Shown here piece by piece: positions 11,755 to 56,444 of a DNA stretch of 64,000 nt. This DNA comes from Takakia lepidozioides (taxonomy: Eukaryota; Plantae; Bryophyta). The notes under the pieces are model-generated. The model ran no database searches and was not told the origin of the DNA. It worked only from the letters and a program-made list of their open reading frames with translations. Each line of letters opens with the position of its first letter. The first letter of the stretch is position 1. Location: NCBI GenBank assembly GCA_030704615.1, contig CM060732.1:57846001-57910000 (forward strand), given 5' to 3'. A program made the translations under genes and the position numbers.

Positions 11755-13360
11755 GTGCCACCCGTTGCTGAGGAGAGTGTCGGTACGAGCACTAGCGATA
11801 CTAGTGGGTATACAAGACGAGGTGTGCGGTTTAGGCCACCTTCACCTTTAGTGTCTTCTGAGGAAGGTTCAGACTCAGAGTTAGGAGGATTCTCGCCGAG
11901 GGTGCAAGCCATTTCCATGCCATTGTTGTGGGATACGATGGAGGAAATGTATGGAGCTACCAAGGGGCCACGTCGGTACTCGGGAGCTGTGGGCACCATC
12001 GAGCTTGATGATTTCATACAGGAGTTTGATAGTTGGTGTGATTTGCAGCAAATGCGCAATCCACAACTGTTTACGCCTTTTATGGCGTAGAAGGGGCTGT
12101 TTCAGCACCTTGAGGGGCCGCCTATGGATGACTACCATGAGTTTAGGCGAGGAAATGAGGTGAAGATTGAGGAGTGGCGACAATATTGTTCATCTGACTA
12201 TATCTCTATCACTAGAGGCACAAGGGCAGTGGCGACACCAGCAACTATACGAACATCCCCAACTGCAAGCACTAGTAGTGGGACAAGTAAAGATGGAGTT
12301 GGGAAGTCCACTCAAGCTCCTGCTGCAGCACCAGCACCCGTGCCTGCCTTTAACCCAGTTGTGGAGTTCTTCGAGGAGTTGAGGAGAAACTACCAGGGAA
12401 TAAGGACGGAGAAATTGTGGAGCTTGCAAGAGTTCCAGCGCAAGCCTACTGAGAGTTTGAGGGAGGCTTACACGCGCATGAGTCGATTGATAAATGTGAC
12501 TCAAAGGGTTACGGAAGCTCAAGCAGTCCAATTCTAGTATGGGATATTGGACAAGGAGCTGAGGAGAAGGGTGCGGGATGCAACTCTCCTACAAGTGGCC
12601 CAACCCACCTTAGCAAACGTGTTTTTGATGGCAGAGCGGATAGAGCTCAATATAGTGGAGGAGCGAGTGGTCATGGTGGGGTTTGGTAAGGAGACACAAC
12701 GAAGTGGGGCTCCTAGCCAATAACAACCACTACCCCAACGTGCTCAAGACAACAAGGGGGCTCAGACGAAGCCTAGGGAAGGACAGAGTTGATCTCAATT
12801 GCAGAGGTCATTTCCTTCATTCTCAAGCCAACAACAGTCGGGTGTGACATGTTGGGATTGTGGAGGACCCCATGTTAAAATAGATTGCCCGGAGAGAGGC
12901 AAAGGGCCGGCACAGGCACAACCTACACAACTACAGTGTGGGCATTGTGGCAAGTATGGGCATGAGGAGGCCCATTGTTATGACTTGCATCCTTAACTAC
13001 GGCTAGGCCAGTTCCAATGGAACAATGGTGGCCGAGGACGAGGCAATGTAGTCCAGAGAGGTAGATGAGGCAGAGGTCGCGGTGGAGGTCGTAACCAAAA
13101 CCAGGGAGCACAAGGTCAAGGTCAAGGTCATGACCAAGGCATGGTGGATAGGCTTGCCCAACTAGATCAACGTCTTGCCACCATGGCCACTACGCATGTT
13201 GCGCCAGCTCCAAGGCCTGAGGTTCAAGCCCCACCCGCACAACCTCTTATGTCTAGGGAAGACCAGATTGGTATGGGCTTCATGTGTGGAGCCGCACTTG
13301 CAGGACCATTGCATGTGGACTCTGTAGCTGCTGTCACTCGAGCAACAAATGCATGCTCCT
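11755..13360 (+). pseudogene. gag of the DNMT-carrying retrotransposon
   Basis: Retrotransposon capsid-like segment (LDDFIQEFDSWC.., LQEFQRKPTESLREAYTRM) and two CCHC zinc knuckles (CWDCGGPHVKIDC, CGHCGKYGHEEAHC). In-frame stops. Confidence 0.8.
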
Positions 13361-13964
13361 GAGCCAAGAGTGTCACTTGCCAAATCAATACGAATCTCTT
13401 GACCCTTCAAACTCCCCAAATCCTTCAAACTGAAGGCAAAGCAATTTCTATAAGCCCTTAGAAATCGCTGGATCCTCCGTCTCTCTCCTCCGGTGACTGT
13501 AGGTCCAACATCTGGTTCCCAATTGTCCTCAGTGACTGCAACCTTGAATACACCAGGCTTGGAGGTAGGAGACGAATCCTTTAGTTGCTAGATAACAACC
13601 TCTTGGGCCTTGTCCACCCAATCTGATTGTGGCGTAGCCTCCACTTGCTCCGCCATAGCCACCTTGAGAACATCCTCTGAGCAAGAAACAGACTCAACCT
13701 CTTTAAAAACCTTGGCTACATTGGCCCCCAACTTATCCTCAGTCCATGGCTCTCCCCACTCCTCATACTGCTGCTTGAGAGATCCAATGACTCTATCTTT
13801 ACGCATCTCATCCCACATCTGCCATGGGTGTTTGCAACCCACGATCCTGTGCTCGCCCTCACTCACTGCCTCAACCGTCCCGGTTGGCAGGGAGGATGCA
13901 CTATCCAATGGGAGTGCAGAAGTAGCCACCAATGCTTGCAATCTCCGTTGCTCAGCCATGCACA

Positions 13965-14912
13965 AGCCAATTATCCATGTCAAGCAATTTAGATCCATTG
14001 CTTGACCCAACACTTGGCGGCGTGATGCCTCTGACAGAGTTGGCACATCTGTAGTGCCGGTGACAAATCCCATTGCCCGCTCTCGCTCATCCGCATTGGG
14101 CTCCACCAATTGTTGTAGCACACTGTCCCAAATCTACCCAGGACCATTGTCTCGGAAAGCATGAGACGAGGGAAAGCTCATGAGTGTAGGCAAGGCCGCA
14201 CGTGGCTGCCCCACTCGATTGACCACTGTTAGAGGTTGACGATCATCATGTCGCACTCTCTGTGGTTGCCTCCCTTGGTCCAAAATGCCTTCAACCGTGA
14301 GATTGGGTGGCCGTTAAATGGAATCATATGTTCTTTTGAGCAGCTCTGGTGGTGCAAGATTGGTCCACCACAATCGAGGTCGATGCGCGTGTGATCCCAC
14401 TGCTGCTGCATCCAATAGCACCGCCGATCCAATCCAAGACCGCACCCGATGCACACTGGCCATAACCCTGGCCCGAGAATCCCCCAGAAGAGGAACATTC
14501 TCCAAGATATAGCCTAGAGGTTGCACTTGCCTCGTCTGCAAGTCCCGCAACACTCGCAACATCTCCCAAACAAATGCGATCGTGCATCATGCAAGCCATT
14601 CCCATGACATGCGGGAGAGTGTCCTTGGCAAGGCCATCCGGCTATCACCAAGTCGATGGCACCATGCCGGTCCAAATCATCCGCCCCCAGCAAGGTAATA
14701 TCTGCTGGCAAGGCTTTTTGGTACCCTTGAATTGCTGAGAGAGGCAACAACTCAAGATATCGGTGTGTGAGCAAGGCGATATGGCACATAGAAATATGGT
14801 GAGCTATCTCATCCTTCTCCACATATAAGTACTTGCGTACTTTAATCCCTGCTTACAATACTTCTGCAAGCCCAGTGCTCATGCCTCCAAACAGGTCTAG
14901 CAAACAAATCCC
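13965..14912 (-). pseudogene. DNMT3-like C5-cytosine methyltransferase domain inside retrotransposon pol
   Basis: Motifs in canonical order: I ICLLDLFGGMSTGL; II KYLYVEKD; IV IDLVIAGWPCQGHS; VI YILENV; VIII AAAVGSHAHRPRLWWTNL; IX ERERAMGF..TTDV; X RRQVLGQAM. Stop at 14853 and frameshifts near 14570, 14315 and 14150. Confidence 0.9.
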
Positions 14913-15249
14913 TGAGTCATGTGGTTGCCAGGTAATGGGCACTATGTCCAAAGGTGCTAACTCGGGAGGTCCAGGTGATGTCATTGAACTCCCATCACTC
15001 ACCAATGGAAAGGCCTCTTGCCATGCTTGGTGCACACACTTGCCTGCTACTCGATGCAAATTCCTAACCGTACCCCACAGTGGAATATGCATAGGTACAT
15101 GAGGAAGCAAATCAGCCTTGTATGCCAATTGTTTGTCCTCATCAGGTGATGGCCTATCATTTGCATGGCTATTGCCTTCCAAGAGCTCACCACCCCAAGC
15201 CACTACCCCTGAAAATGCAGCCAATGTGGGCATCATGTTCCTATGATCC

Positions 15250-15700
15250 ACCGCTACATTCCCAATAAACCACACTGGGAGCAGTGCACGTCTGTTATCT
15301 CCTGACTGCCACTCCGCCCTATAGGATGTCGTTTCTTCCCAAAAGTCCAGAGTGAATTCCATGGGGTATAACACCGCCCCACCAACAAGCACATCATAAG
15401 ACATCGCGTCCGTAACAATGGCTTTAGCTCTCATGACTGAGCCGTCTGTATGATGATCCGCCTGCAATCGAATGAAGAGCTCATGGCATGTAATCCCTTG
15501 TGTCTTCTCTGAACCGCCCAAAGATGTTTGAATTTGGAAAGGGCAAAGCTCCAAATCCGCCTCTGTAAAGCCCAAGCCTGCATTTCCTGCTCTTCCCAAC
15601 ATCAATGGCTGTGCCCCCGAGTCCAACAAGACCCGTAGTGGCCTATACCTCCTCCCAGCTGGGCCACCCAACTGAAACACACCATCCTGATTGTCCACCA
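15250..15700 (-). pseudogene. Retroviral-type aspartic protease domain
   Basis: RVLLDSGAQPLMLG catalytic motif and the downstream YDVLVG motif in ORF 14853-15752, in frame with DNMT motif I. Confidence 0.8.
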
Positions 15701-16206
15701 GGACTACCCCATGAGTCACCATACTGCGCTCAATGGCTGGCCTAGCCGGCAACTCCTACAATCTTGCAGCTGCCGCTTGCCATGGCGTAGCTGTGGCTGT
15801 CTTCACCCTTGAATTCAAGGCATTCATGCATTGCACCTTATCCGCTATCCCCGCAGATAGTGCCGATGCATCACCACTCCCACAGAGTCTAGCTGCTAAT
15901 CTGAACACAGCAGCTGGTCGAATCCCCGGCATTGCAATTGTCATTGCAGAAAACAATGGAGCTTGGCAAACTGCCGTAGCCGCCCCCAACAATGTACTGG
16001 CTGCACCTTGTTTTGCAGCACCACCCACTAGCATATCCCGAGCCATGCCAACTCTCCCCAATGGCACTCGTGGCTCTACCTCTGACACACTTGGGCGAGC
16101 AGGTGCCATCGATGGCGTAGTTGGCATTGTCTCAGCCAATATAAAAGACTGTGGAAGCCTTGTCTGTTGACTTGCTTCCCCCCTTTGTGGATAAAAATCC
16201 ATATCT

Positions 16207-17535
16207 TTGGTGGAGTTGTCAGGCGGGGAGTATGCCTCGGCAACGGTGATGCCAGCTAAGAAGGATATCTATTGCAATTGGACAGAAAGAAGGATGTGTG
16301 GGGACTATCGTCCTGTGAACCGTCAGACTAAGTCCGATAGATATGCCATGCCAACTCCAGAGGAGATCTTTGATGCCATTGGGCATGCAAAGGTATTTAG
16401 CACATTGGACTTGCGATCCAGTTACCACCAGTTGCCAATCAATGAGGCTGACAAGCAAAATACGGCGTTCTGGGGATTGACCAACATGGGAATGATTGTT
16501 TGTACCAGGATTCTCGCGGGGCTAGACTTCGTCTGGTGCTACATTGATGACATCATCATCTTTAGTGCTACGGTTGAGGAGCATGAGAGACACCTTCAGG
16601 TGGTGTTTGAGCGCTTGAGAGCGCACGGGTTGAAACTGCACCCCAGAAAGTGCAAGTTCTTCCACAATCAGATTGAGTATCTGGGCCACATGATGTACCC
16701 TGGAGGATTGGGTGTTCAATAGACAAAGGTGGAGGCCATTGCAAGCATTCCATGCCCCATGGATGTGAGCAGAGTTCGTGCTTTCATGGGATTGACAAAC
16801 TACTATCGACGGTTTGTCAAGGGATTTAGCAGCATTGCAAAGGCTCTTACCAAGTTGACCAAGGTGGGTCAGGAGTGGCAGTGGGAGGAGAAGCAGGAGG
16901 AGGCCTTTGAGGAACTCAAGGCTCGATTGACTTCTGCACCTATTTTTGAGGTGGCCTTTCCAGCTACATACGGATTGGAGTATGCTGGGGATTGGAGCAG
17001 TGCTCACACAGGTGGATGATGAGGGAAAGAGTTTGTAGTGGCATATGCTAGCCACTCGAGCAATGATGCCAAGGCGAAGTATAGTTTCTATGAAGAGGAA
17101 TGTCTAGTTGCGGTATAGGCAGTAGCACATTTTCAGATGCTACCTCTATGGCAATCTCTTCACCCTTGTCACGGATCACCAACCATTGAAGTGGTTGATG
17201 GAGTCAGACAAGCTTACAGGGAAGCTTGTACGGTGGGCACTTATGCTTCAAGAGTACGACTTTCAGGTGGTGCATCGAGCTGGTATAGTCAATCGGGATG
17301 CAGCTGGATTGAGTCGTAGTCTATGCACGAGCGAACATGATGATACTGGAGCTCGGTAGCATGGTTAGACAGATGAGGAGATTGTGTCAGGATGACATGC
17401 CTTTTTGTGCATTCTAGCAATGGGAGCTCAAGCTGGTCCATCCCATGCGATTGGTCATGTAGATAGCGTGCATAACGATCCAGAGACTAGTGAGGAGTTT
17501 GGTGTTGCTAAGGATGTGCATGAAGATGCAACAGT
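16207..17535 (+). pseudogene. Reverse transcriptase and RNase H of the DNMT-carrying element
   Basis: RMCGDYRPVN, FSTLDLRSSYHQ, YIDDIIIFS, IEYLGH; RNase H LHTDWS..GIGAVL, VAYAS, VTDHQPLKWL. Confidence 0.9.
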
Positions 17536-17538
17536 GTT

Positions 17539-18190
17539 TTTGGTGCTCCAGCCGAGGTACTCACGGACCAGGGGAGAACTTGCTGTGACATCCAAGGTCG
17601 TAGGCGCTGTCTGCTGCAGATACACATAGTTTCCAGGGTTGAATCTCCGAACACCCGGTCGATATCCTCCTCCACGTATAGTGGCATACGTCAATGTGTC
17701 TCGGTGTTGGGCAATAGCAAGGTTCTCAAAAGCCATAGGCATGACTCTCTTGAACAACTCTGCCCGCTGGTCACACGCTTGTGTCCACACATCCGGATCA
17801 TCAAGGTTGAGGACTACTGCAGCCTCTCTGCGAATAGATGCAGACAAATCTAGCTCTCGGCCGAAGAGAAAAAAGTAAGGTGAGAAAGGCAAGTGAAGCT
17901 TGCTGAACCTGTAGCCCATAGCTAGCCAAGGCAGCTGAAGGTCCCAATCTCCTAGGTGTTCCTTCTGTAAGCCATACTTGCGCAAACCTCTCTTGACTGT
18001 CTGAACAACTCTCTTCGCCAAGCCATCAGCCTCGGGATGATCCCGAGAAGTAGTGAGTGTGATTCTAAGGGTCAGGGAGGTGTTGCCTTCAGGAGTGTTG
18101 ATTCTGGAAGGTCGAGATGGTATGGTATGGAAGGATTATGTGCGCAATTGTGCATTATGCCACCTCCCACATGTGAATGGGATGATAGAT
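17539..18190. pseudogene. Fragmented integrase of the DNMT-carrying element
   Basis: FGAPAEVLTDQGR (+, 17539-17577); TTSRDHPEADGLAKRVVQTVKRGL..WDLQLPWLAMGYR (-, 17579-18055); VILRVR..LEGRDGMVWKDYVRNC (+). Confidence 0.8.
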
Positions 18191-18221
18191 TCCCAACCTT
18201 ATCACCAGCTAGGGGGGCGAT

Positions 18222-18800
18222 TGTAGCATAGTTTTCTAGGATTGTGTGCTAAGAATATGTGGTGAACAACGATGTATGTTGTGGCACGATACTTAGGTGC
18301 ACGACAGCTGTCATGGTTTTAGTCATGGTTAACTAGAATTACCTACTTCTAGTTAATTAGGACATTTTGTATATTTATATTTGTATTTTGTGTGTTGGGA
18401 TTTCATTTGGTCTCATATGCCAAGTGAGGTGTCAAGCCTCACTTGGGACATGGGGAGTGGTTTTCCGCTTAGAGAGCTCATCTTCTTGTAGTTGAGCCTC
18501 CATGAGCCTCCATGAGCCTCTCTCACCTCCATAGCTCTAGGTATTGAGAGGGAGTGTATTGAGGGCTTTGTAGGGTGGATTCCTTTAGCTTGACTTAGTT
18601 TATGTGATAGAGTGGATTTCACTTGGAATGAGTAGGACTTGTTCTTAGTGTGATTGCTTCATGCTTTGAGAGCTTTCATTGTCATCCACTTATCTAATTT
18701 CTCATCTCTTATCATTGTAGCATAGCTTTCTAGGATTGTGTGCTAAGAATGTGTGGTGGACAACAATGTATGTTATGGCACGATGCTTAGGTGCACGACA
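18222..18800 (+). repeat. Truncated LTR of the DNMT-carrying element, with its first 85 bp repeated at 18716-18800
   Basis: Starts TGTAGC directly after the PPT. Homologous to the reverse complement of 39717 to ~39310. Confidence 0.8.
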
Positions 18801-26200: not shown

Positions 26201-29200
26201 ATAATGGAACTTACAAAATTCCTTGATGAATAGTTGGTTTTGGGCTGCTTGTTGAGTCTCAATTCATTCATTTCCTTTCTTCCTGCATGAGGCATTACAT
26301 CTTAGACAACCCCTTGATAGTCGGTTTTGGGCTTGTTGTGGACCCTACTCTCTCCTGGTTTCCTGCTTTCTCTTGTCCCATAAGCTCTTTGAGCTTTCCG
26401 CAGAACGTTATAAAGTGTCATTTCATTAAGGCACTTTGTCTTTAGACTAGTCTGAAGTGATTTCTTGTAGTTGTCCATTGTCCCATGGGCCCTAGGGTAC
26501 CTGTAGCACAATTCAGTTTCTTGCTTGATTTCACTCTTCTATGGGAGGAAAAAGGTCAAGTATGAAACTCACCCTCCTCCAGTGAGCACAGCAAACACAA
26601 CGCTAATAACGGAGCCTCCATTTTCTCCATGATCCGCCACCAGCTTTGACCCGTACCACATCGCCAGAGCATAGCTCATGAACATGGTCATCAGAGCAAA
26701 ACCAAGGCCAAGACCAGAGGCTACACCTGACTTAACTCCGGACTTCTCAGCAATTGCAAGCGCTTTGTCATACTCATCCACGGATTTGGTCTCTCCAGTG
26801 TAGGATGACACCTACAAACATTGCAGTGAACCATCATTTACAGTACCAGACAACAACCTCAACCTAAATGTGTGATCATAATTTTCTGTCTGCTCTTCCA
26901 AGATTCACAAAGAAATTTCTGTCAGTGGAACCATACGGCTGCAGGATTGGACTCCAAAAACTCTCTGAGCACGAAAGGATGCAGACACTGAATATTTTGC
27001 GTTTATAATCAACTCTTAGTTGATAAACATGAGGTACAAATAGGCTTGTTCATGAAAACAATACAATGCACAACTGATTGGTCTTATCGAATTTGTTATG
27101 AACTCTACATTGGAAGGCACATATTATACAAGGCACACGTCAAGGGACTCACTGTCCGAATAGAGCTGACAACTTGCTCAACAGTGGTGTTTGCCTCTGC
27201 ATAAGCTAACTGTCCTTCGCTTGACATTTTAGACATCAACATTGCCATGGTGCCGCCTGCCAAGATCAGGAGAGGCATCGTTGCCACCATGACCAATGTG
27301 AGCCTCCAGCCCTTCGCAAATGCAACACAAAAGCCGCCTACGAAGGTTGCAATCAACTGTTGAAACTTGCCCACCTGTCCAAAGAATGCCCACATGTTTC
27401 ACCTCATGAAGTAGAAAGCCATATTCTAACTAGATTTATATTCGAATAACGACAGTTTTAATGATGTCCTCCAGCAATTATTAACAACATCTTTTGCTGC
27501 ACTGGCCCTGTGACAAATTGAGACCGAAAAATCACCGAATAGAGCTCCTGTGAGGAGAACATTACCATCCAGGATTGCCTGACATACCCATTGACAATGA
27601 ACTTGGGAGTAACTTACAGCAGGTTACAGGAAGACAAAGCTATATGACTATCTTTAGCCGAGATGGCAGACAACGCTCAAAGACCTGGGTGATACTCCAC
27701 TTTGCGGTAGTAGTTGTAACGACAGGGATGAAGATATGCTGGGTCCCAGTTGTAATCAATCTAAATTACAGGTTGGGAAAGTGTCCCATTGATTCATACC
27801 TTCTCACCAATAGCGTCCTGGATAAGAATTGTGTCACCTGCCATCCTCCCTATCACTGCGCCTGTAGTGGTGTCTTGGTCAAAAAATGGCACATCCTGCC
27901 TCAAAATGGCCTTCAAATACATACTCCTGATGCGGGCAGATTGTCGCTCTCCAGTAACCATCCAGCAGGTCACCTCTACACAACAGAATTCCCGCAGCAC
28001 TGTAAAATCCACTACCAATGACAGCCTACATGCAGAACTGAAATGTAAACATTGCCAGGGGTGGGGAAGCTCGAAAGGAAAAAATAAGCAGATTCTTCTT
28101 CCCAACAAAATCCAACTAGTGTGACCACCTATCAATCCTAAAGGGTCCAGGCTCCTCCTCTTCTTCACAAAAACACCAATCCTCACCACTACCGTCAGAT
28201 AGTAAAATGAATCAAAGACAACTTGCATTTTTAATTCGCTATCACCTTTCCAAATGTGAGCTGTTAAGCTAGAATAGTGTCTACCAAGGCTTTTCATTCC
28301 TTATGGTCAAGAAAGTGACAAATGTTCCAGAAATCTCACGGGCGTAAGATGCCACCGCAGATGCTATTCCAAGATAGACAAACTTCACAGCTACCTGCAC
28401 AGCGCCCATGCCAACATGCATAACAGTTTGGGAGTACCATCAATGTCAGTGAAAGCTGAGGAGATCTCTTGAAAGATCTATGGTGCAGCACTTGGATCTA
28501 ATGATGCCCTTGGAGGTTGTTGAAAGAAGAGACTTGGTCTCAGCTCTTTCATGACATTTGTCGCTAGAACATTAGTTCTTATTCTTGGGTTCTGGTTTTG
28601 TTCCTCTCTCATGTTTTCTTCCATTTTGTCCCATAAGCTCTATGAGCTTTCCGCGGACGTTATAAACACCATTTCATTTCATTTCATGGGGGAACTCCAT
28701 GTTGACAAGGCAAGTATCACTTGAGTCTGGGACCAGTTCCTTATAGCTATATTTCAGTCAATTTCTGCGTCTTATCCAGGAATTGAAGGATCATACAGAA
28801 GTAAGGGTATGCCAAACAAATCCATGCAGCTGAGCTCAGGCAGAAAATGCATGGAAGCTGACCAACCTCATAAAAATTCTCCAATTATATTTTCGGATGC
28901 AAAAAGGGGTAGCTAAATTAGGAAATAAAAACAATTGCTGCCCAGATTCAGCACGCCACTTTGTTTGCTTCTTGGTCTTGCAGCCATGCTGCGCTGGGTG
29001 GGGAACCTCCCCCTCATTTGTACTCTGGTTTGGATGGTCAGTAGAAGTGTTGTCCCCAACCCCACCCAAATTAAAATAACATAAATTATAATAACTGCTG
29101 TTGCTGTGTATGCCAACTGGGAGACTTGGGAACTAGAAGGAAAAGACTTCCATTGTGTTGGCTGCAAAATTCCTGGAGCACTTCTGGGCAACTTCTACAG

Positions 29201-29671
29201 CCGCAGGGGGTAGAACCATGACAATTGCACAAAGGAAATACTACTAGCCAATACTCTCCTCTGTTCTCAGAAAAACTTAAAAATTCAAGGGAAGTAAAGC
29301 AACACCTTTGACACTTCATGGACCACGGCAGACGTGTCGCTCTGGTTGTTGCCAAAGGCATTTGTTAGCGCCCCAAAGATGAGCGTCATCAATGGCATCG
29401 ACACTCCATTCGCAACCGCGCCTACAGTTCCCACTATCATAAGAAAGATATCAAAAGAATCCGCGAACTTGAACAGCTTGTAAAATGGCACTATATACTC
29501 CGTGTCTTTGCTCTTCTTCTTCGCCCCCCCGTCTACGACCTTCGTAGTTCCTGCCTCTTGTAGATCAGCCTTTGAATTGCCGTTCACTACCTTCCCCGGC
29601 GTCTTACTGCCTCCTGTCGGCCAGTCAGCTCCAGTCGAAGTGCCAACCACGTCTATGTCCGGGTTCGCCAT
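20290..29671 (-). CDS. Full-size ABCB (MDR/P-glycoprotein) transporter, ABCB4/11/21-like, 12 coding exons, ~1304 aa
   Basis: Exons: 29306-29671, 28340-28394, 27800-27975, 27153-27374, 26573-26811, 25074-25599, 24593-24866, 23540-24191, 23053-23281, 22295-22561, 21210-21473, 20290-20934. These sum to 3915 nt (frame intact). Two NBDs with [29 protein letters not shown]. Confidence 0.95.
21535..22110 (-). mobile_element. LINE 3' remnant in ABCB intron 10 (same family as 18801-19550), including its 3' UTR
   Basis: [31 protein letters not shown], followed by the cccataagctct..cggacattataaa 3' UTR. Confidence 0.7.
23335..23435 (-). repeat. Short LINE 3'-end copy with (CATTT)n tail, ABCB intron 8
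   Basis: Reverse complement of ccataagctct..gagctttccgcggacgttataaagcaccatttcattt. Confidence 0.65.
26330..26430 (+). repeat. Short LINE 3'-end copy, ABCB intron 5 (another degenerate copy at ~25810-25880)
   Basis: gtcccataagctctttgagctttccgcagaacgttataaagtgtcatttcatt. Confidence 0.6.
28570..28687 (+). repeat. Short LINE 3'-end copy with (CATTT)3 tail, ABCB intron 1
   Basis: Near-identical to 40958-41075. Confidence 0.7.
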
Positions 29672-31749
29672 ATTGCCCTGCGCCGCGACAGCCTTCAAAA
29701 GGCTTCGAGACTGATTTCCCGCTCTCGTTGAACCTCCTGAACATATAAAGGATGGATGCGGGAGGTCTTAGCGTGGAAGAACCTCGTTATCTCAACAGCA
29801 GGAATTTAGGCATTGGGAAACATAAGGTGAACACACTGACTGCAACGATGTCAGGACAGCAGGAGGAATTGCTAGCATGACAGACGTTTACACATCCTTA
29901 CCTCAAAATCCGCCACCAAATTCTCACCTTTCTTTTGAATCAAGTCAACTCCTCAACCACATCGACGAGTAGTTCCCTCTTCCCTCGAGCCTCCATAACA
30001 ACTCCAGTATCAGGTACTGGATCCGATCACCAGTGAGCGACAGATGATCGAACACTATCTCAAAATTGCAGACAATTCATCTCCAATATCTGGACGCCCC
30101 TTCACAATTCGAGTCCCGATAGCAATTCTATAGACCAAGGACTCCTTTTCCTGGAAATTCAAACCGCCTATCGTCCAGGAGACCAAAGCACCACCAGCAA
30201 CCTTATTGTAGCTTAGTTCAGCCTCTCTGTACATCTCTCTGTTCTTTTCTTTATATGTTTTGACTAGGATGCAGGTCAACGACCGCCTACAAGCACGGCG
30301 GGACCCGTGCTTGCAAGCCATTTCATGCCATTCTTTGGCCTTTTACTTCACTTGCCCTTCGAATCCCCTGCATTCGAACAACCACCATCGCTGTTCCTTC
30401 TCGAGTATCTTGGGACTTCATGTTCGAGCATGCCACAGCGAGCCCTAATGGATGAAAAATCAGTATAACATAACGGTAACACCTTCCTGGACAATTGAAA
30501 GCGTTCACATGAACGAGAGATAGTGGATGGATGGACTTTCTTCCTCGTTAAATCAACGAAGTAAACTCCGAGATGTTTCATGAATGAATGTACGTTGACA
30601 GGGCTGTTTCATTCATCCGATTGCTGGTCGGTAGTTAAAGTTTGGTTAACTTGCGTCGCAAGTAAGTTAAAGACTAAAGACACAGAGGCGGATAATAAGG
30701 CGGCGACTCACTGCTTCTGGAAGCTCCTTCTTACCACGCCTTCCCACACGTGCCCTTTCATTCGGTGCTGATTAGGTTTTCCGTAAATCGTACTGCACAC
30801 ATCCATTTTTGCACTTCCCACATCAATCGAGCCGCATAAAACGTGCTCGAAATTGAATGCGATCCCGAGTCCGTGGATCTTTTCACACTCCTAAACCGAA
30901 GTGCTTTTTGCATGGCACTTCTTGTCACATACTTACTACCTAGCGAGTTGCAAATCCGGAATCCGGATATACCTATTCAGGTTTTCAGCATGCGGTCAAA
31001 GTGGAGATGGCGCAACTTGGGGGACACTCTTGTCAGTCCTGGACCCATGCAGAGCTTTCGGTGAATAAGAAATCATATGTGATTGTATTCTAAAGACCGT
31101 GTAGACCTCGTTGGCAGAGCATCCATTTTCGTAACGCTCTCGCTGCCAAACACCCACCGTGTGAATCGTTTGCGTCAACGAACTGACAGATCTGGCGCCC
31201 GCATGCCCAGGAAGTCCACGAGCTCGTATTTAACAATTTAAAGGGACTGCATTCCCAAAAAGCTGATGTGCCAGAGACTACTTTTATGTAGTTTAGTAGG
31301 TACACAAGTCTTTTGACACTGCTTGTCAGCGGTTTTTTATTTTCATTTTTCAAAAGTCGCTCGCCGGGACACCTGTGAACTTTACCCGATGTCCACGTGG
31401 CGAGACTAACTAGGTGGCACGTTTTGACGGATCGATGGCGTGATCGAACACCCCTTATTCCACGCTGGCGATTTCCCCCACAATTCATTTCTACAAGTAT
31501 GTAGCTCAGTCATTTGCCAAAAAGAAAAAACAATCCCCCTGTTCTGTTTTAAAAAAAAAAAAAAAACACTGAGTCCTTGTAAGTACAGGGGAACTGCTAA
31601 GAATCTTGTTCATTCATGAGCAGTCTAAAAGGTACCGAATTTCGAATACACGACTGGGTCTGGACTCTGCAGAGAACAACAGGGGTCAACACCAAGACAG
31701 GCTCGGATCCGGACTGTACCGGGCCGGCCGAGATCCAGTGTGCTGCAAA

Positions 31750-36277: not shown

Positions 36278-37868
36278 AAAGTTTGTTCCTTAGTAAGTTA
36301 AGATGGAAGGCACATTTGCGGAAATGGTCGTCACATTGCAGAGTCTTCAGCTCCAGATGCAAGAACTTCGTGCCTCTACTGCCCAACTAAAAGCTGATCA
36401 GTTTCAAGACCTTGGCAATGCTCTCAACAATTTGCAACAACAAATTTCAGAGTTGAAGGAGTCGAACAATGGATCTTCAACCTTACGAGTCCTTACTACA
36501 ACAAATCCTACTGCAACGGTTCCTCCAAATCTTCAACAGATTACAAGGGAACCAAAGGTCAACATGCCCGAGAAATTTGATGGGATGAGATCAAGATTTC
36601 GCGGTTTTGTTCAACAAGTACGATTGTTCCTACGACTATATCCACAACGCTATTCTGATGAAGGTATTCAAGTAGGATTCGTGGGCACCTTTCTATCAGA
36701 CATTGCCCTATCTTGGTTTGCACCGCTATTAGAGAAAATTTCGCATTTACTATACAATTTTGAAGCGTTCATGTCCGAGTTCACTGCAACGTTTGGAGAT
36801 AATGATAGAGAGAGAGTTGCAGAGACAAAGATGCGAAATCTTCAACAAGGAGCACGTCCAACTTCCGTTTATGCTGCCGAATTTCGACAACTTGCGTGCG
36901 ACCTTGACTGGAATGAGAAGAACTTCATTAGTCAGTTTCAATGTGACCTAAAAGATGATGTTAAAGATTTGTTGCTGACAATGTCAAACGTGAGTACACT
37001 GAGCGAATTCGTCACCCAAATCATTGCATGCGATAATCGTTGGTTCGAAAGACGTCAAGAGAAGCGATCTGGATGGACGACGATGCACCATGCCGCTGCT
37101 ACTACGGCACCAAATACAACGATCATCGGACATCCGGTAATGATCCTATGCAGATTGATGCTGTCCGATTCAAGCCATTGACGCCACATGAAAAACAAAG
37201 ACGGCGCTCGAATGGATTATGCCTTTATTGCGGAGAAAATGATCACATGACATTAAACTGCCTCAACAAGAGAAGATTCAAAGCTCGGGGCACCACTCAA
37301 GTGTTCGATACGAGGAGGTCGGAAAACGAAAATGTTCAGTCACAGTACGGACCATGCGGCTGCACACCCCAAATTCCTCACCAAAAAAAGATCTCTTTCT
37401 ACCTCCTGTATCTTGTTTCACATTTCCAGTAAAGATCAGGATGCAAAATCGAGATATCTCCGTAGAAGCACTTTTGGACTCGGGCGCTTCAGCGTGTTTT
37501 ATTGACAAAGACTTTGCAAAGCAACACAATTTACCGCTCGTAAGAAAGAAATTCTCAGCCCCTGTTGAAGTTATCGATGGACGACCGTTAGCATCAGGAA
37601 ATGTTGACCATGAAACTCGACCCCTTGAAGTGAAGCTTAAAAATCAAGCATCACAGATTGTTTTCAATGTCATCCAGTCTCCAACGAATCATGTGATCCT
37701 TGGACTTCCCTGGTTTGTACTTCATAATCCTGATATCGACTGACAATCACGAAAAAATTCGGTAAGACAAAAATGCAAAAGTACCAAAGGTATTCAACCC
37801 CTGTTTTTTTGAGCTAGAGCCTTCATGAGAGCTACAAAAAAAAAGGCGACATTTGCACTTTATGCGAC

Positions 37869-39717
37869 AGGCCCCAATACCTGCTAGATATTGGCCTCAA
37901 TAGACCCCAAATAGTTCTCAAACAGGCCCCCAGTAGGCTCCAAAAATATCCACAGTCAGTCGATTTTTCATCCATCACTGACCGAATTTCATCCAAAACC
38001 GCGATTTCTCATCCACAAGTCCAATATTTTATCCGTCAGTGCGATATTTCATCCACTGGCACGATATTTCATCTGCTGGCGTAGTTTCATCCGTCGCCGC
38101 AATTTTTCATCTGATGGTACGATAAATCATCCGCTGCCACGATTTCATCCGCTGACGCAGTTTCATCCGTCGCCACGATTTTTCATCCGATAGCGCGATA
38201 GTTCAACTGCTGACGCAGTTTCATCTGTCGCCGCAATTTTTCATCCAATAGCGCGATAGATCATCCGCTGGCACAGTTTCATCCGTCGCCGCAATTCTTC
38301 ATCCGATAGCGCGATAGTTCATCCGCTGATGAGATTTCATCCGTTGGCGCAGTTTCGTCCACTGCAACCGATTCCCATCCAGGAGGGCCAATTTTCATCC
38401 ACTGGCTCAATAGTTCATCCGATGGGACAATGGTGGTACTCCCAACTCTGGGGCAATGTTCCCACGCGTTCCCATGCGTTTCCACGAGTTCCCAAGGAGT
38501 TCCCAAGCGTTCTCACGTGTTCCCTCGAGTTCCCAAGTGTTCCCACGTGTTCCCAAGCTAGAGTTTGCGCCGCTTTGCCTCTGCGATTGCTGCAACGAGC
38601 TATGGCTTCTATGGAGCAACCAGAGGTGTTGTTCTTAGTTTCTTGAGCATCAATAGACCACCAAGAGTGCCTCTAAACTCCCTGAGCAAGCTCTCTTTCT
38701 CTATAGAACTTATTGAAACAAGCATAGAACAAGCTATTGAGCTTTATATGGCATACCCTCTTTTAACCATCGCATGCACTCATAGTGCTTCCTTCCATGG
38801 CCATAGTGCACTTCTTAGAGCTCCTAATCCAGCCCTGCACTTGCCACTTCCATAGACATGCTCTTCCCAAGCTTGGGATTGAAACCCCAACTCAAAGCAT
38901 GCTCTACAAATACACTATTCTGCCCCAAAGAGAAATCAGATGTCTACCTCCACTCATAGCTTTCATAAGCTTGAAGTTGAAGACTCCCACAAGCTGAAAC
39001 CATGCTCCACACATGCACCGCTTGCTCCCTTAATACCTGAGCTCTTCTTGAACTCCTCAAACCGTGCAACACTTACAGAACAAGAACTTCTTCACAAGTT
39101 CTCAAACTTTTCAATGGGGCTCTCCTTGAAGACCTCCTCTTGTACATAAACACCACAAGGCTTTCTTCTTGCAAACCCTACAACACCTTGTAACTTAAGA
39201 GCTATCTATTAAGCTCTCATTCACACAAGTGCTAACTATGCTAACACATTGCACTCATCGATGTAAGCAGGTCTTCTTCTAGTGATACGGAAATGGTGAA
39301 AAGAGGAGAAACCACTCTATCATGTTATATAAGTCAAGCCAATGGCACCTTTGCTAAAAGACTCCACCATACAGACCTCACCCACTCTCCATCTCAAGTA
39401 CTAGAGCTATGACGGCGAGAGAGGCCTCGGGAGGCTCAACTAGAAGAAGACGAGCCTGCCTACTTCTCACATGGAGATAACCTCCCCACGTCCCAAGTGA
39501 GGTTCGTCACCTCACTTGGCAGATGGAACCAAATGAAGTCCCAATGCCAACAAAATACAAATATAAATGTATAATGTCTTAATTAGCTAGAAATAACAAT
39601 TTCTAACTAATTACAAACAAAACCATGACAGCTGTCGTGCACCTAAGCATCGTGCCACAACACACATCGCTGTCCAATCACACTTCCTAGAATATAGTCC
39701 TAGAAAGCCACGCCACA
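37869..39717 (-). repeat. Long LTR segment of the DNMT-carrying element
   Basis: Begins TGTGGCG at 39717 directly after PPT TAGGGGGGGCGAT. The first ~400 bp are homologous to 18222-18620. Extension to 37869 is inferred. Confidence 0.65.
37960..38556. repeat. CpG-rich minisatellite arrays: ~20-bp (tttcatccg...) units, then ~9-10-bp (gttcccacg) units
   Basis: Repeated tttcatcc(g/a) cores at 37960-38425; gttccca repeats at 38455-38556. Confidence 0.8.
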
Positions 39718-40820
39718 ATCGCCCCCCCTAGCTAGTGATTAGGTCCCTCTAACACCGGATAGCTTGCAAGTATCCACCCCAATAAGATCATCGCTTGGTC
39801 TTCAATCGCACAAGTCCCAACACCTGAAGTCGATAGATCAAGAGGCCGGGTACAAACGTAGCCCCATTGTTAATCGCCTTCATGCAATCCATGATCTTCA
39901 GTTGAGTATCCATGGCATTGAAGCCCCACTAGCTAGACCTTGGATCACTTGTTCGCCTCACCATTGTCATGCCCACTACCTCTGTCCAAGGCATCGTGGA
40001 CACAACCATTCTCCGATAGGAACTTCCTCAAGTGGCAGTGTCAAGCATCCCATGTGCCACCCCCTTGAGCATTTGTCACACGCCAACATGGTTGCGGCGC
40101 CACCAGCATGCCCACATAGCATGCAACGCAATCCTGCAGATCCCACTATCCTCCCATCCACATGTGGAAGTGACATGGCGCACAATTGCGCACATGGTCC
40201 TTCCATACCATGTCATCTCGACCCTCCAGAGTCAACACTCCTGAAGGCAACACCTCCCTGACCCTTAGAATCACACGTCATGTTGTGACATCCAAGGTTG
40301 TAGGCGCTGTCTGCTGCAAATACACATCGTCCCCAGGGTGGAAACGCCGAACACTTGGTCGATATCCCCCTCCGCGTATAGTGGCGTACCTCAATGTGTC
40401 TCGGTGTTGGATAATAGCAAGGTTCTCAAAAGCCATAGGCATGACTCTCTTGAACAACTCTGCCCGCTGGGCACATGCTTGTGTCCACACATCCGGATCA
40501 TCAAGGTTGAGAACTATTGCAGCCTCCCTGCAAATAGATGCAGGTAAATCCGGCTCTCGGATCCCCCATGAGAGGAACAGTCTCCAAGATGTAAGCTGGA
40601 GGTTGCACTGGCCTCACCTGCAAGTCACGCAACACTCGTAACATCTCCCAAAACAAATGCGACCTTGCATCATGCAAGCCATTCCCATGATCTGCGGGAG
40701 AGTATCCTTGGCAAGGCCATCCAGCTATCATTAAGTCAATTGCACCATGCCGGCCCAAATCATCCTCCTCCAGCAAGGTAATGTCTGCTGGCAAGGCCTT
40801 TTGGTACCCTTGAATTATAA
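39718..40820 (-). mobile_element. DNMT-carrying Gypsy element copy 2 (internally deleted): DNMT motifs IV-VI joined to integrase C-terminus, PHD finger, PPT
   Basis: IDLMIAGWPCQGYS..LFWEMLRVL..YILETV (40548-40820); WTQACAQRAELFKRVMP..LDVT (40278-40547); PHD 39976-40140. Confidence 0.88.
39976..40140 (-). pseudogene. PHD finger at the integrase C-terminus
   Basis: CMLC..MLACDKCSRGWHMGCL..PLEEVPIGEWLCPRC, a canonical C4HC3. Confidence 0.88.
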
Positions 40821-40900
40821 CACTCGTGGTACTGCGAGTGGCACGGAATCCCTCCTGAGGGTCACTGAGGATATGGTGCTGCTCAACGTAACTGGATAAC
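40821..40900 (-). mobile_element. Small LINE RT fragment
   Basis: LSSYVEQHHILSDPQEGFRATRSTT (non-LTR RT QxGFR motif). Confidence 0.6.
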
Positions 40901-40957
40901 ATTGTAGTTAATTAACTAGAAGTAGGTAATTCTAGTTAATCATGACTAAAACCATAC

Positions 40958-41290
40958 ACATTAGTTCATATTCTTGGGTTCTGGTTTTGTCTCCTCTCTC
41001 AAGTTTTCTTCCATTTTGTCCCATAAGCTCTACGAGCTTTCCGTGGACGTTATAAAGCACCATTTCATTTCATTTCTCTCATATGCACAAGCGTTATTTA
41101 TTCCTCTTTCCCTCACGTGCACAATATTTGTTTTTTCTTCTCGCACACGCACAATCTTTGTTTCTTTTTCTCTCCATCGGAAGCACAATCTTTGATTTTT
41201 CTCCATTGTTTTTTTCCATTTTGTCCCATAAGCTCTTTATGCTTTCTGCGGACGTTATAAAGTACCATTTCAATTTCATTTCATTTTACT
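40958..41290 (+). repeat. Two LINE 3'-end copies with CATTT tails
   Basis: ccattttgtcccataagctct..ggacgttataaag.accatttca at ~41010-41075 and ~41215-41288. Confidence 0.65.
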
Positions 41291-48382: not shown

Positions 48383-51300
48383 ATGGAAGATGAGAAAGAA
48401 GCAAAAGAGAGCAGGGAGAAGGAGATGGCAATGAAGAAAGCGCGAAGGCTGGTGCTGCCAAGCCGAAGTCGCTATACCAAGAAGCATGGGAAGGACACGG
48501 GCGGCAGTGCAGACTTGCAGCCTTATCACCGTCGGAAATTGCGTGCCGTGCTGGCCGCTCTGCTGGAGCAGCGTGTCTGCGCCCCGGCTTCCGGAGTTGT
48601 GTCCGTTCTTCTTGGAGCCGGATGTCGCAGCGACCAACTGTATCAACACCGAGATTTGAATTACTTCTGGGTACCTCCTCTGTTTTCGAGTTGTGAAGAA
48701 ACAAGCTCATGTGTGTTTTTGATTTATGAAGGAATAATTCTCGTGCTATTACAAGGGAAGAGGCTGTGGAAAGGCTTGATCTGGTTCACGGTGATCATAA
48801 CAAAGGTGTAGGGTGTCTCATGCTCAGGCAGCAATGGAGGTGATGCGGCAGATTGAAGGCACCAAAGCTAATAGTCTAAAGTTCAAGCGCCTATATCGAA
48901 TTTTGCATCGGAAGCAACTGAATCCGGTATAATTTGGGTTGACTCCGGACTTTGTCTCCTCTTTGGTAGTCACACTTAGTATGTTCTCTTTCTCAACTTT
49001 GTTTGTTCGATGGGGACTATGGGCATTAGTTCTGCAGTGTAATGCAGTAAAATTCTATGATTTGATGGTGGAACAGAGACTGGGGGGAGAGGTGCAACTA
49101 GAGCTGGCTCTCTACTTGATGAGCCAGGGTGACTACGATTCGTATGAGGCTGCCTACAATGAAATACGACCGTATGTACTTCCTCTGACCCATCTCTTTC
49201 CACTGCACTATGAGGATATCCACGATGCAGGTAGAAGGCTGACTATCATAGATTGTGACAGTCGAACCACAGAAACCAAAGAGCAACTCAAGGCAACTGA
49301 GGAGAGAGGGGGAGAGAGTCTCTAATAGGAAGTGTCATGCTTGTTGCAGGATAGTGGATGTGGCTCCATTCCGCGACGACCCAGTGGTTAATTTGTGTCA
49401 TGGGCTCACACTGCATCGGCTCTGGCATGACAGAGCTGTTCAAGATGTTGAGAAGCACTTTGTTGATGACATGGGAGGCAGGCGTCCTTGTAATGGAGAT
49501 CAGGGTTTTGAGGAAGGCTGTGGGGAGAATGAGGACATGGAGGTGGAGGGGGACCGGGATCCGGATAGGATGGTGGGAGACGACGATTTGGTAGGCATGC
49601 TTCTTCAGACGAGGGGAAGACATTTGGATTCCAGTGGAGGCGAAAACACAGATTCATTTGGTATTGCAGGGAGCAGCCTTCCCAGTAGCCAAGGACAGCA
49701 ACGAGGCTTGTATGATGAGGAGGAGCATGGGCAGCAATTTGATGAATTTTGGCAGACTGCAGTTGTCCGGTGGTCTCCTGGTATATCCTGTCTTAAAACC
49801 AATAATAAACTTGGTGACAGTGAGTAGATATTTTTCTGGGTTGCTTGCAAACAGGCTTTACTGTTTTGCATGGCCAGATCCTGGTCTTAATCTAGTTTCA
49901 GCAGATACTTATCACCGGCAGTCTTCGGTTGCATGCTTTCAGGTTTTGTTGCCTACAGAGAGAAATGAAGTGATATTCTGTCAGATTGATGAAGTATTTG
50001 GAGGCCTGCAAAATCTAAAATTGGTATTGGCATGTTGCTTGACAGATCTTGACAAAAGGTTGTTTCCAGTGCGGCTGCCACAAACTAGCACCCAGGCAGT
50101 ATATGTGGTTCCAATGCAGAGTGGCAGAACCAGGGACGCACATGCCAATGCTGTCAAATATCTCCGCCAAGCACTTAAGGGTGCGCGCAACATGACCCCT
50201 GCACTCCTTCCCTTGGTCCAGGTACCTCAACCATATTACGTCAAAAGGATACATCTTTTTATATCACTGCTGACATTAACTTTGGTGGTGGCTGAGGCTG
50301 TTAGGTTTGCCGCGGATCGTTTGTCCTTACTGCGCCAGCTGTCTGTCCCTTTTTTCAACACTACTGAGACCAAAACACACACCAAGTTTACATAGTAGGG
50401 TCTTGCCATATTGGCATTTTTATCCACGACATCCTTTCATCTCCCTCTCCATCTTTGCTTGGCAGCTGCTGCTGGCTGTAGGAGATGTGAAAGGTGCTGT
50501 GGAGGAGATTGATAGGTGTTGCGATAGCCCCCACCTTCTACCCCTTGGGTGCGTCTTCTGTGCTAAGTGGTGTCCACAAGTAAAACCACAAGCGAGTGAT
50601 TTGAGTTTGTTGCACTGCTTAGCCAACCCTTAAATGAAAGATACACAAATTCTGAAGTTCGCCTCCAATGATTTCTGGATGATGTCATTGAGCTTGGGTT
50701 CTGTGGTAGGATCTGCGGGGTTTTGGACTAAAATGGGGCTTGGGTGGGTTGGTGCTGGTATAGCATAAAGACATTGCTGTTGGAATCATTTGATCGAAAG
50801 GATTCGAGATTGATCTCACAGAGCTATGAAGCTATGCTGGACATAAATCCATCATGTGCAAGTGCCCTTTCAGCTCTCATTCGCTTACATGCAGCTGGTA
50901 CTATTACTTCTCCCTGTTAGCCAAAAATATTTCTGCTTGGTCGGAGAGATGTGTCCTGTGCTTTTGGTAGTTTTGGCTGGTACAAAATGGATCTGTCTGA
51001 TTCGTTGTCCTGGGCACTCTCACCAGACGGACGCCCCCTTCAAATCCATCAAGGGATTTGTTCCTGTACCTCTGTTTACCAACTTTGAAAAACCTTTAGG
51101 CTGAGCCAAAAGCCCAGGCCCTTTTGGGGCTAGTTATAGGGCAAATCACACACAGCAGATTGATGCTTGTGTAAGGGATCTCTAGAGGATATCTGGAAAA
51201 CTTGGATCAATTGTCTGTTCCAAGGTGAGTCATACTACCGGCGTCAGCCCCTAGTTTCTGTCCCGTTGTGTTCCCCTCAAACTGGGCACGGGGTCAATGG

Positions 51301-51870
51301 CCACAAGGTTATGGCAAACAATGTCTTATGAGTACATTCTCCTTTTGACAGGAAGATACAAAACACAGGCACTAGTGGAGTGTATTGCCGGCGCTTTGGA
51401 TGTGGAGAAGGGAGACCTAGAGGTATGGCAGCAGCTGGCCGCTTGTTTGCTTGTGGCGGAGCTGCAGTTGGACAATTCTACTGGGAGTGGAAGAGTGGGA
51501 GAGACTGGTGCAGCTTATAATCAGGATGGAGATGGTGTTGGAGGGGTACAAGATGCTTCGTTTGAAGTCTGGCTGAAGCAGACTTGGAAGGAGAGAAGTA
51601 GATGGTGGGCCCACAAACACTTTCACGAGACAAGCATACGTGTGGAGCAACAACATGATGGTATGCTGGAGGCAAACTTGAATTTGTCCTTTGTCTCAGG
51701 CTGCACTCCTGTGACCGATGTTGATTTTCTGGTTCAAGGAGATGGCTCTGGTACGACTATGTCTCTCATTCTGGTACTCTTTTGTTGTGATGTGATTATG
51801 GATAGGTGATTGGCGGCGAATTGCGTACAAAGCTGCGTGCTCGACTCATATTATGGGTCCAGGGACTGTG
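48383..51870 (+). CDS. TAF1A-like protein (RNA Pol I TBP-associated factor subunit A), multi-exon; 3' end uncertain
   Basis: Spliceable exons encode LRAVLAALLEQR..ASGVVSVLL, VQLELALYLMSQG, DPVVNLCHGLTLHRLW, AVKYLRQAL..ALLPLVQLLL, WKERSRWWAHKHF and YKAACSTHIMG, matching recalled plant TAF1A-family motifs. Confidence 0.62.
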
Positions 51871-55600: not shown

Positions 55601-56444
55601 GATTGGCATAATGGGGGCACTTGCCAGCGTACTGAACCTTTGCTCCCTGCACAGGTGCGTCAAGAACCTTTCAACTGGGACTCTAGTACCTCTTTTCTGC
55701 CTCCTTTCTTATTAATTGATCAACAGTTTGATCACTTAGGCAGGTTGTCAGTGTCTGGGTGGAAGTATGTCTTGTGGTTCATCAGGACCAAAAGAAGATA
55801 TATTTATATTTTTATATCTCTCTCTCTCTCTTTCTAATAAAAGATGTGAAGGCCTCCAATTGCCCAGAACAGGAGCCATTAGGAAACAAGAACCCAAAGC
55901 TTCCAGAACTATCTGGAAGCACAGGCTGTCTCCACGAGCCATCCTGTCTCTTCAAAAACACCTTCTTCTTTGTCTGAGATGACCATGTCAGCATGCTTTC
56001 TTCCTCTCTGTGACGTTCTCCAAGTCCCTTACAAGGGCCTTGGGAAGTTCCACACATTTGGAGGAGGTTCAATCCTTTGCAGACCAGGGGAGCTCATCCA
56101 TGGTTCTTTTGCGTTCAGTCTATGTAACTACATGAGGGTTGCTCTTGTTTCTGACAACTAATCAGGTGCACTCATTTTTCGCCCTGGAAAGCCATGGAGT
56201 CAACAGTGAGGCACGCCGCATAAATGCTCATCTGATAGCGGCCATTAACAGAACGAGTTTCCACACCTTGAACATCACACAAATGAGCGAGTTCAGAGCA
56301 GATGCTCATCCCTCCACATCAGCTGGGACGCTGCATCCAGACTGCATGCATTGGTGCCTCCCAGGAGTAACTGACACTTGGAATGAAATGCTTGCAGCCC
56401 TTTTATTCAGAAAGCTTGATAGCTCGACCAGAGCTAGAAATTAA
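52633..56444 (+). CDS. TBL13: Trichome birefringence-like (TBL/DUF231) O-acetyltransferase, TBL13-like
   Basis: N-terminal signal anchor; PMR5N ([25 protein letters not shown]); GDS motif [10 protein letters not shown]; KKWRP.GADKG.TF; NTGHW; RHFEGGDW; DCMHWCLPG. Exons ~52633-52822, 53081-53329, 53786-53963, 54434-54574, 54990-55104, 55519-55653, 56166-56444. Confidence 0.9.

Follow-up and report, generated by a model that had tools for sequence, protein, structure and literature searches.

A PHD finger and a DNMT3-like domain in a green-lineage Ty3/Gypsy retrotransposon family, parted in the subclade of a Takakia copy by a conserved and probably leaky stop codon

The window, by which we mean the whole stretch of 64,000 nucleotides from Takakia lepidozioides that was analysed, contains two copies of a Ty3/Gypsy retrotransposon family. 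Copy 1 retains gag, protease, a full-length DNA methyltransferase (DNMT) domain, reverse transcriptase (RT), RNase H and part of the integrase, but has suffered two internal inversions. Its features are:

11974..13360, + strand: gag region (tblastn with L015 ORF1, E 6e-18; also tblastx with L008)
13372..16190, - strand: inverted block with the gag end, protease (~15650-15330), DNMT, linker and RT N-terminus
13951..14918, - strand: DNMT3-like domain, full-length but dead, motifs I, IV, VI, VIII and X in normal order
13582..13590, - strand: conserved in-frame stop between DNMT and RT, TAG CAA CTA (TAG 13590-13588), in a CARYYA context
16204..17551, + strand: RT and RNase H (Pfam RVT_1, E 1.8e-21)
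17563..18054, - strand: inverted integrase segment, the N-terminal part of the integrase being deleted
18059..18190, + strand: integrase end, followed by the deletion of PHD and 3' UTR
18212..18800, + strand: 3' end, with polypurine tract (PPT) 18212-18217, B1 18220-18306, A2 18309-18713 and B2 18714-18800

Copy 2 lies on the minus strand and is a dead deletion derivative, about 3.4 kb shorter than the intact relative L015 (L and P numbers denote loci and proteins, respectively, of the relatives analysed). Its features are:

40909..40955, - strand: 47-nt stub of the 5' A repeat, 98% identical to 18313-18359
40817..40908, - strand: foreign filler of about 90 nt between the A stub and the DNMT fragment
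40561..40816, - strand: DNMT3-like fragment, motif IV to VI (PF00145, E 1.5e-11), 89% identical to copy 1 14479-14733
40146..40560, - strand: C-terminal half of the integrase, 77% identical to P0001 and 89-90% identical in DNA to copy 1
39976..40125, - strand: C4HC3 PHD finger at the integrase C-terminus (ligands 40125-39991, stop 39978-39976)
39722..39728, - strand: polypurine tract (G run); the same G run precedes repeat B in 6/6 loci inspected
39353..39719, - strand: 3' end, with B1 (39719-39633), a CA-nn-TG junction and a partial A2; B2 is missing

Elsewhere in the window are exons of an ABC transporter (ABC_tran, ABC_membrane; 20290-29767, - strand), separated from the 3' end of copy 1 by about 1.5 kb, and remnants of an unrelated Ty3/Gypsy element (RT-RNase H-integrase at 8360-11030, - strand; gag-protease at 36297-37743, + strand). 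Exon matches were obtained to TAF1_subA (51255-51806, + strand) and PC-Esterase (55376-55834, + strand), the latter in keeping with a land plant as host. Degenerate tandem arrays occupy 63444-63998, 59801-60195, 38027-38423 and 8890-9203, the array at 63.4-64 kb having short palindromic units. A short, very high-copy interspersed repeat adjoins the 5' end of copy 2 (40958-41076) and recurs at 28569-28685, 23346-23428, 26345-26427 and 41207-41284.

Copy 1 is also dead. Its DNMT has stops at 14855, 14316 and 14136 plus a frameshift near 14568, and no match to the A repeat was found upstream of gag, where the 5' repeat was sought. The inversion at 17563-18054 is specific to this copy; contigs show that other host copies are colinear across 17581/18057. 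Alignment of the two copies proceeds to 18188 (= 40146) and resumes at 18196 (= 39744), and therefore copy 1 has lost some 400 nt that would hold the PHD and the 3' UTR; the initial annotation had already stated the deletion of the PHD. The deletion ends about 20 nt before the G run 18212-18217.

In copy 2 only motifs IV-VI of the DNMT are left (256 nt, 40816-40561) and these are out of frame with the C-terminal half of the integrase, which rules out an in-frame DNMT-PHD fusion at this junction. The integrase fragment is interrupted by a stop at 40280 and again by a frameshift near 40167-40170, directly before the PHD, and the integrase-PHD linker is about five residues shorter than those of relatives. 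The filler at 40817-40908 matched nothing in the window or in the loci of relatives; the idea that it held a LINE RT motif was dropped when no match was found. Contigs of other copies connect repeat B to a place near 39283. Deletion derivatives resembling copy 2, having protease, DNMT, the integrase end and PHD but no RT, are found at L012, L014, L051 and L038 and in P0004 (Marchantia Mp_7g09570). Such derivatives are not in frame where checked.

The PHD finger of copy 2 directly adjoins the C-terminal part of the integrase and has canonical C4HC3 zinc-ligand spacing, C-x2-C-x11-C-x2-C-x4-H-x2-C-x14-C-x2-C at 40125-39991 (- strand). It is real: the Pfam PF00628 match has an E-value of 2.2e-11 (44 bits versus a cut-off of 24), and a looser C4HC3 pattern had a single match across all six frames of the window and none in 50 base shuffles. 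The placement of a PHD at the integrase C-terminus in the initial annotation was thus correct. Pfam detected no chromodomain in the window or in the L015 ORFs, the PHD being found in that place instead, and hence the element does not have the feature that marks chromoviruses. The further claim that a DNMT and a PHD belong to the same element is borne out by relatives, although neither copy in the window has a whole DNMT plus a PHD.

The ends of these elements are split direct repeats of the form A-ORFs-PPT-B|A-B rather than ordinary LTRs. The full layout is present at L046 and L060, with TG...CA ends and a 4-bp target duplication that is exact in L060 and has one mismatch in L046. The B|A-B part of the layout is seen in copy 1 (18220-18800), L007, L038, L061 and L074. 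At the internal B|A junction, CA-nn-TG, the two element ends meet head to tail with 2 nt between them, and the PPT lies in front of B, not A. Junction sites are found in the window at 18300-18313 and 39639-39626 and at L046, L060, L007, L038, L061, L015 and L013. The junction, the PPT position and the 4-bp target duplications together suggest, by analogy, a DDE integrase that acts on a DIRS-like, possibly circular intermediate. IS3 and IS30 transposases work likewise.

With the integrase C-terminus as query, 66 longer relatives were recovered from sources that include liverworts, Sphagnum and volvocine algae; most are labelled with a PHD. The locus set consists of the best 80 of 359 confirmed metagenome loci and represents 66 distinct copies. 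In these best 80 loci the domain order is gag-PR-DNMT-RT-RH-INT-PHD (PR, protease; RH, RNase H; INT, integrase), with the DNMT directly after the protease in all 22 loci having a protease match, and the Ty3/Gypsy order RT-RNase H-integrase is present. In an RT-RNase H tree of 152 rows the window falls within one clade (FastTree support 0.999) that stands apart from ordinary plant and animal Ty3 rows. Clade mates are the Klebsormidium nitens proteins P0372 (DNMT-RT-RH-INT), P0342 (RT-RH-INT-PHD) and P0303, together with Closterium and chlorophyte elements. Of the named rows, proteins of Calypogeia and Marchantia lie closest to the window in this tree. The tree comprised rows with near-complete RT and RNase H, left out P0260-P0277, and was rooted on the window's unrelated Ty3 remnant; its deep branches inside the clade are weak. 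A separate maximum-likelihood topology, computed without supports, agrees on the main groupings. By sequence, the window copies belong to a Ty3/Gypsy clade that is broadly spread in the green lineage and has Klebsormidium elements of the Gypsy-DNMT3 kind among its members.

The host genome has many related copies, as given by contig coverage: two runs of a single sample yielded 5,826 and 10,530 short contigs that matched the copy 2 region at an identity of at least 85%, and the bins of the PHD were well covered. Contigs of two runs whose RNA origin is only a guess touch parts of the element and were not taken to show expression. Nothing was found when the integrase-PHD alignment was compared with viral contigs.

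The methyltransferase domain is DNMT3-like. When the L015 DNMT was compared with PDB, the 29 best of 44 matches were DNMT3A, DNMT3B or DNMT3C. The motif order I-IV-VI-VIII-X in copy 1 is unrearranged, and the motifs are intact in relatives. In the one intact pair available, L013/L015, in which synonymous sites are near saturation, pN is 0.14 versus a pS of 0.64 for the DNMT and 0.10 versus 0.73 for the PHD, indicating purifying selection on both. The position of the DNMT varies within the clade. In one large subclade (P0047, P0053, P0099, P0124 and others), the named members of which are chlorophytes, the domain lies between RNase H and integrase, and in the remaining members (such as P0036, P0235, P0308 and L015) it lies between protease and RT. 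Motif IV reads E-C or is devoid of Cys in many of the chlorophyte-type DNMTs. Chlorophyte relatives that bore no PF00145 label had been taken to be DNMT-less, which was wrong: the domain is present but often missed by Pfam. The K. nitens DNMT gave no DNA methylation in yeast, a result its authors call inconclusive (PMC5890265).

DNMT and PHD almost always occur together, and yet each domain can be lost alone. Since both the loci and the representatives were ranked by a PHD-containing query, which inflates the PHD frequency in both, the following counts are upper readings: among the best 80 of 359 loci the PHD is present in all 22 (19 distinct copies) that have a DNMT and are long enough to hold the finger, it follows the integrase in 70 of the 72 loci with at least 300 nt beyond the integrase (the other two have a frameshifted PHD), and it is found in 148 of 150 representatives at 50% identity. 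Co-occurrence across family members, the check that the initial annotation had proposed, thus came out positive at every informative locus. In 53 representatives RT or RNase H and integrase share one ORF; the DNMT lies between RNase H and integrase in 40 of these, lies upstream of RT in 2, and is lacking from 11, although most of these 11 ORFs start near RT, so that upstream DNA falls beyond their scope. In both arrangements, with the DNMT either ahead of RT or inserted between RNase H and integrase, the integrase keeps its PHD.

Losses are seen in both directions. P0243 and P0252 are gag-protease-RT polyproteins that have kept the PHD but lack a DNMT, and P0055 and P0056 have kept the PHD beside a decayed DNMT. 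Conversely, no PHD was found in 11 Closterium proteins with an integrase match, 10 of which extend at least 36 residues past the match; these rows are gene models from an RT-based search that had no PHD in the query. Four of the 11 carry a DNMT. The 22/22 co-occurrence taken together with P0243, P0252 and the Closterium losses indicates that, in these sequences, pairing is the rule in the clade but the two domains are separable. On the initial annotation's question of whether the PHD is equally common in DNMT-less relatives the answer is divided, as the PHD persists there but such relatives are a minority. The idea that the PHD is older than the DNMT lost ground, since DNMT-less rows nest among DNMT-bearing ones in the wider tree, the deep branches of which are weak.

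In the subclade of the window DNMT and PHD are separated by a conserved stop codon. The TAG at 13590-13588 is the only stop in the DNMT-RT linker of copy 1. A TAG is found at the homologous place in 14 of the 23 loci having both DNMT and RT (12 distinct copies) and no stop is there in the other 9 (8 distinct), whereas DNMT and RT are in frame in 22/23. In plant viruses, a UAG with CARYYA directly after it serves as the type I readthrough signal (PMC5382211). The full CARYYA motif is present only in the window (TAG CAA CTA), L013 (TAG CAA TCA) and L015 (TAG CAG TTA); nine loci have the partial motif TAG CAA CCY and two have a decayed TAG TAA. TAG plus CARYYA occurs in only 3 of the 1534 TAG triplets of the window. 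The linker codons after the stop are also under selection (pN 0.13 versus pS 0.63 in the same single, nearly saturated L013/L015 pair), and L015 ORF2 has no Met before its RT domain. Moreover, in 33 of 48 DNMT proteins the end of the DNMT is complete and matches to RT, RNase H and integrase are absent; all 33 terminate 5-181 residues past the DNMT. From these sequence features the stop between DNMT and RT is probably leaky and read through. At L037 (221-229), a single locus of another subclade, the DNMT is followed immediately by UGA CGG, with which a type II readthrough context begins.

What the PHD might read was approached through its residues. The nearest PHDs in PDB are those of CHD4, MLL3, KDM5A/B PHD1, PHF12, DPF3, PHF21A, ATXR5, BAZ2A, AIRE and UHRF1, and none of the ING, BPTF or TAF3 PHDs is among the best 60 of 85 PDB matches. 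The aromatic cage of H3K4me3 readers of the ING2/BPTF/TAF3 type has a Trp two residues before the His. This position is Gly in the window and Trp in only 1/193 PHDs, whereas the Met of the cage is common (133/161 PHDs). In KDM5B PHD1, L325, P347, G349 and W351 contact H3 Ala1, D328 contacts Arg2 and D308 contacts Lys4, and loss of D308 lowers affinity about sevenfold, from 6.4 to 41.7 uM (PMC4225485). Aligned with KDM5B, the window PHD keeps the equivalents of L325, D328, P347, G349 and W351, which are conserved in 189, 184, 159, 149 and 183 of 193 parsed PHDs, respectively. However, the equivalents of D308 and of the T3-binding E321 are both Ala in the window PHD, and acids before Cys1 are rare within the window's subclade (2 of 18 PHDs) but frequent elsewhere (113 of 143). 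From this pattern of residue conservation, binding of the H3 N-terminus seems plausible, caging of H3K4me3 unlikely, and strict K4me0 sensing in the window's subclade doubtful. Binding of H3 may also be weak, given the lack of a D308 equivalent and the few acids before Cys1 in the subclade. AlphaFold gave an integrase-PHD model of low quality (mean pLDDT 51, pTM 0.30), which was set aside.

The reading we prefer, with a probability of roughly 0.55, is that the PHD would tether the integrase to H3 tails and that the DNMT, being upstream of the conserved stop, would be a separate, Gag-linked methylator of cDNA. Because the conserved UAG separates Gag-PR-DNMT from RT-RH-INT-PHD, the PHD is probably an integrase tether and not a guide of the DNMT in the manner of an ADD domain. 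Occasional readthrough of the UAG would give much Gag-PR-DNMT and little RT-RH-INT-PHD, and the protease would then cut the domains apart. The PHD would grip Ala1 and Arg2 of H3, would be unable to cage H3K4me3 and, in this subclade, would sense K4 perhaps only weakly; from these properties integration would be favoured at nucleosomes without active-promoter marks. The DNMT would methylate the cDNA inside the particle, so that reader and writer share one particle but neither steers the other. Methylation of cDNA has been proposed for DIRS elements (PMC5890265). A more ambitious version, which we put forward only tentatively and consider less probable than the preferred reading, is that the Gag/Pol recoding point was shifted downstream of a captured DNMT3, with a leaky UAG, DNMT at capsid level and hence in many copies per particle, cDNA methylated in advance, a scarce PHD-integrase that avoids H3K4me3 and a second writer in chlorophyte-type members. 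If true, the latter members would have two writers and one reader in one polyprotein, the second writer being a phage-like amino-methyltransferase fold behind the PHD.

The initial annotation had instead proposed a coupled reader and writer, in which the PHD senses unmethylated H3K4 as ADD does and recruits integrase and DNMT alike to chromatin of that kind, the new copy being methylated at its site. Family members do carry both a DNMT3-like domain and a PHD of the unmodified-H3-reader type, both under purifying selection, and several data favour coupling: the co-occurrence at 22/22 informative loci; the one-ORF representatives, 42 of 53 of which have a DNMT, each of these 42 also having a PHD (and 40 of them the DNMT close to the PHD); the nearest solved PHDs, which read unmodified H3; and the host DNMT3 of a moss, which works away from H3K4 methylation (PMC6453930). 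However, co-occurrence inside one clade reflects shared ancestry and is not independent evidence. Within the window's subclade the stop parts DNMT from PHD; a shift in the position of the DNMT leaves the PHD on the integrase; and the domains are lost separately, as in the DNMT-less or DNMT-decayed proteins that kept a PHD (P0243, P0252, P0055 and P0056) and in Closterium, where 0/11 integrase proteins have a PHD and 4 of the 11 have a DNMT. The window PHD also lacks the K4-sensing acid. These observations argue against the ADD-like coupling, which we now regard as improbable.

Two other explanations must be weighed against the tether plus separate methylator. The PHD might be retained for a role other than H3 binding: it could attach to a host protein or to DNA, or lend stability to the integrase C-terminus. 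Such a role would fit the window's subclade, in which the acidic patch is gone and small or basic residues precede Cys1, and an invariant Cys just upstream (C321 of P0001) that hints at a structural unit with the integrase tail. This seems unlikely, as the clade as a whole keeps the Ala1 pocket (P, G, W) and the Asp that binds Arg2, and Closterium integrases end without a PHD, so the finger is dispensable for the fold. The other explanation dispenses with readthrough: RT-INT-PHD would come from a spliced or separate transcript, the modules remaining separate but their ratio being set differently. Ogre elements are known to splice at a boundary of this kind, and the restriction of full CARYYA to the window, L013 and L015, with TAG CAA CCY at nine loci and a decayed TAG TAA at two, is in keeping with it. 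Yet the frame is kept across the stop in 22/23 loci, the codons right after the stop are under selection, and L037 has its UGA CGG directly after the DNMT (one locus), and we consider the odds to be well against this explanation, as they are for coupling.

Several known systems resemble the family in part. KnitGypsy-Dnmt3 and the streptophyte Gypsy-DNMT3 elements (PMC5890265) match the family in their Ty3/Gypsy domains, in their DIRS-like repeats and in a DNMT3-like domain whose motifs are not rearranged, but in KnitGypsy-Dnmt3 the DNMT shares an ORF with RT, whereas in the window's subclade a conserved stop lies between them. Since DNMT, RT and RNase H do not lie in a single ORF, the window element is a variant in the KnitGypsy-Dnmt3 clade and not KnitGypsy-Dnmt3 in the strict sense. 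The relatives named here extend beyond K. nitens to liverworts, Sphagnum, Closterium and chlorophytes. EpiLTRs likewise combine a histone reader with a cytosine methyltransferase in one LTR element, although theirs are a chromodomain, Dam and a DNMT that is a sister of DNMT4, whereas the window family has a PHD and a DNMT3-like domain; the preprint describes the Gypsy DNMT3-like domain as a distinct acquisition (bioRxiv 10.64898/2026.05.21.726589). The L015 ORFs contain neither Dam nor a chromodomain, and the element therefore does not belong among the EpiLTRs. DNMT3 ADD domains consist of a GATA-like finger and a PHD next to the catalytic domain in one chain. The window family differs in having a plain C4HC3 PHD about 1,100 codons downstream of the DNMT and beyond a stop.

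Among PHD-bearing elements, REM1 of Chlamydomonas is reportedly a Gypsy element that has its PHD in a separate antisense ORF. Gypsy-7a_cRei, also of Chlamydomonas and compared here by its description only, is a Gypsy element with a PHD and no DNMT among its listed domains; its insertions are intergenic 2.6 times above chance and targeting has been proposed (bioRxiv 10.1101/2022.06.16.496473). PHD fingers have been called widespread in retrotransposons (PMC6673714), and one Ginger1 transposase has a PHD at its C-terminus (PMC2836005). Chromoviruses also have a histone-reader fold at the integrase C-terminus and an assumed targeting preference (PMC6317226), but the window family has no chromodomain, and its fold and predicted mark are different. 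The PHDs of KDM5A/B PHD1, PHF21A, ATXR5, CHD4, BAZ2A, AIRE and UHRF1 share with that of the window the Ala1 pocket, the Arg2-binding Asp and the lack of an H3K4me3 cage. The survey text of PMC6317226 makes no mention of a PHD; the idea that Selgy elements carry PHDs was abandoned, as no supporting paper was found.

Elements that unite a reader with a writer, and Gypsy elements with a PHD, are thus already published. The present analysis adds a conserved stop of the recoding type, losses of each domain independent of the other and a prediction at the level of residues, all of which speak against the ADD analogy. The available text of PMC12344493, PMC6338049 and PMC6317226 contains nothing on a DNMT-PHD pairing, and a PHD is not mentioned in the text or supplement text of PMC5890265, Fig. 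4c of which may show one. No paper was found on an integrase-PHD or a DNMT-RT stop in Gypsy-DNMT3 elements in a search whose scope excluded most subscription papers, Repbase, that figure and preprint supplements. In the cited papers the targets of retrotransposon PHDs are a matter of proposal rather than measurement. The family makes these targets, and the use to which DNMT-carrying retrotransposons put the enzyme, testable in liverwort, moss and green-algal models, as it offers intact members, natural losses of single modules and a recoding signal that predicts protein amounts.

A further domain of about 150 residues, missed by Pfam in the scanned proteins, follows the PHD in 74 of the 150 representatives (for example P0053, P0119 and P0124). 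It resembles phage SAM-dependent methyltransferases of the adenine type (ESM Atlas; feature score 0.96, TM 0.7-0.77), and a clean xPP[FYW] motif is present in only 3 of 52 near-complete copies. P0345 and P0349 form a separate lineage with the order protease-Dam-RT-RNase H-PHD-integrase, in which a PHD and an adenine methyltransferase are again found in one element but the PHD precedes the integrase.
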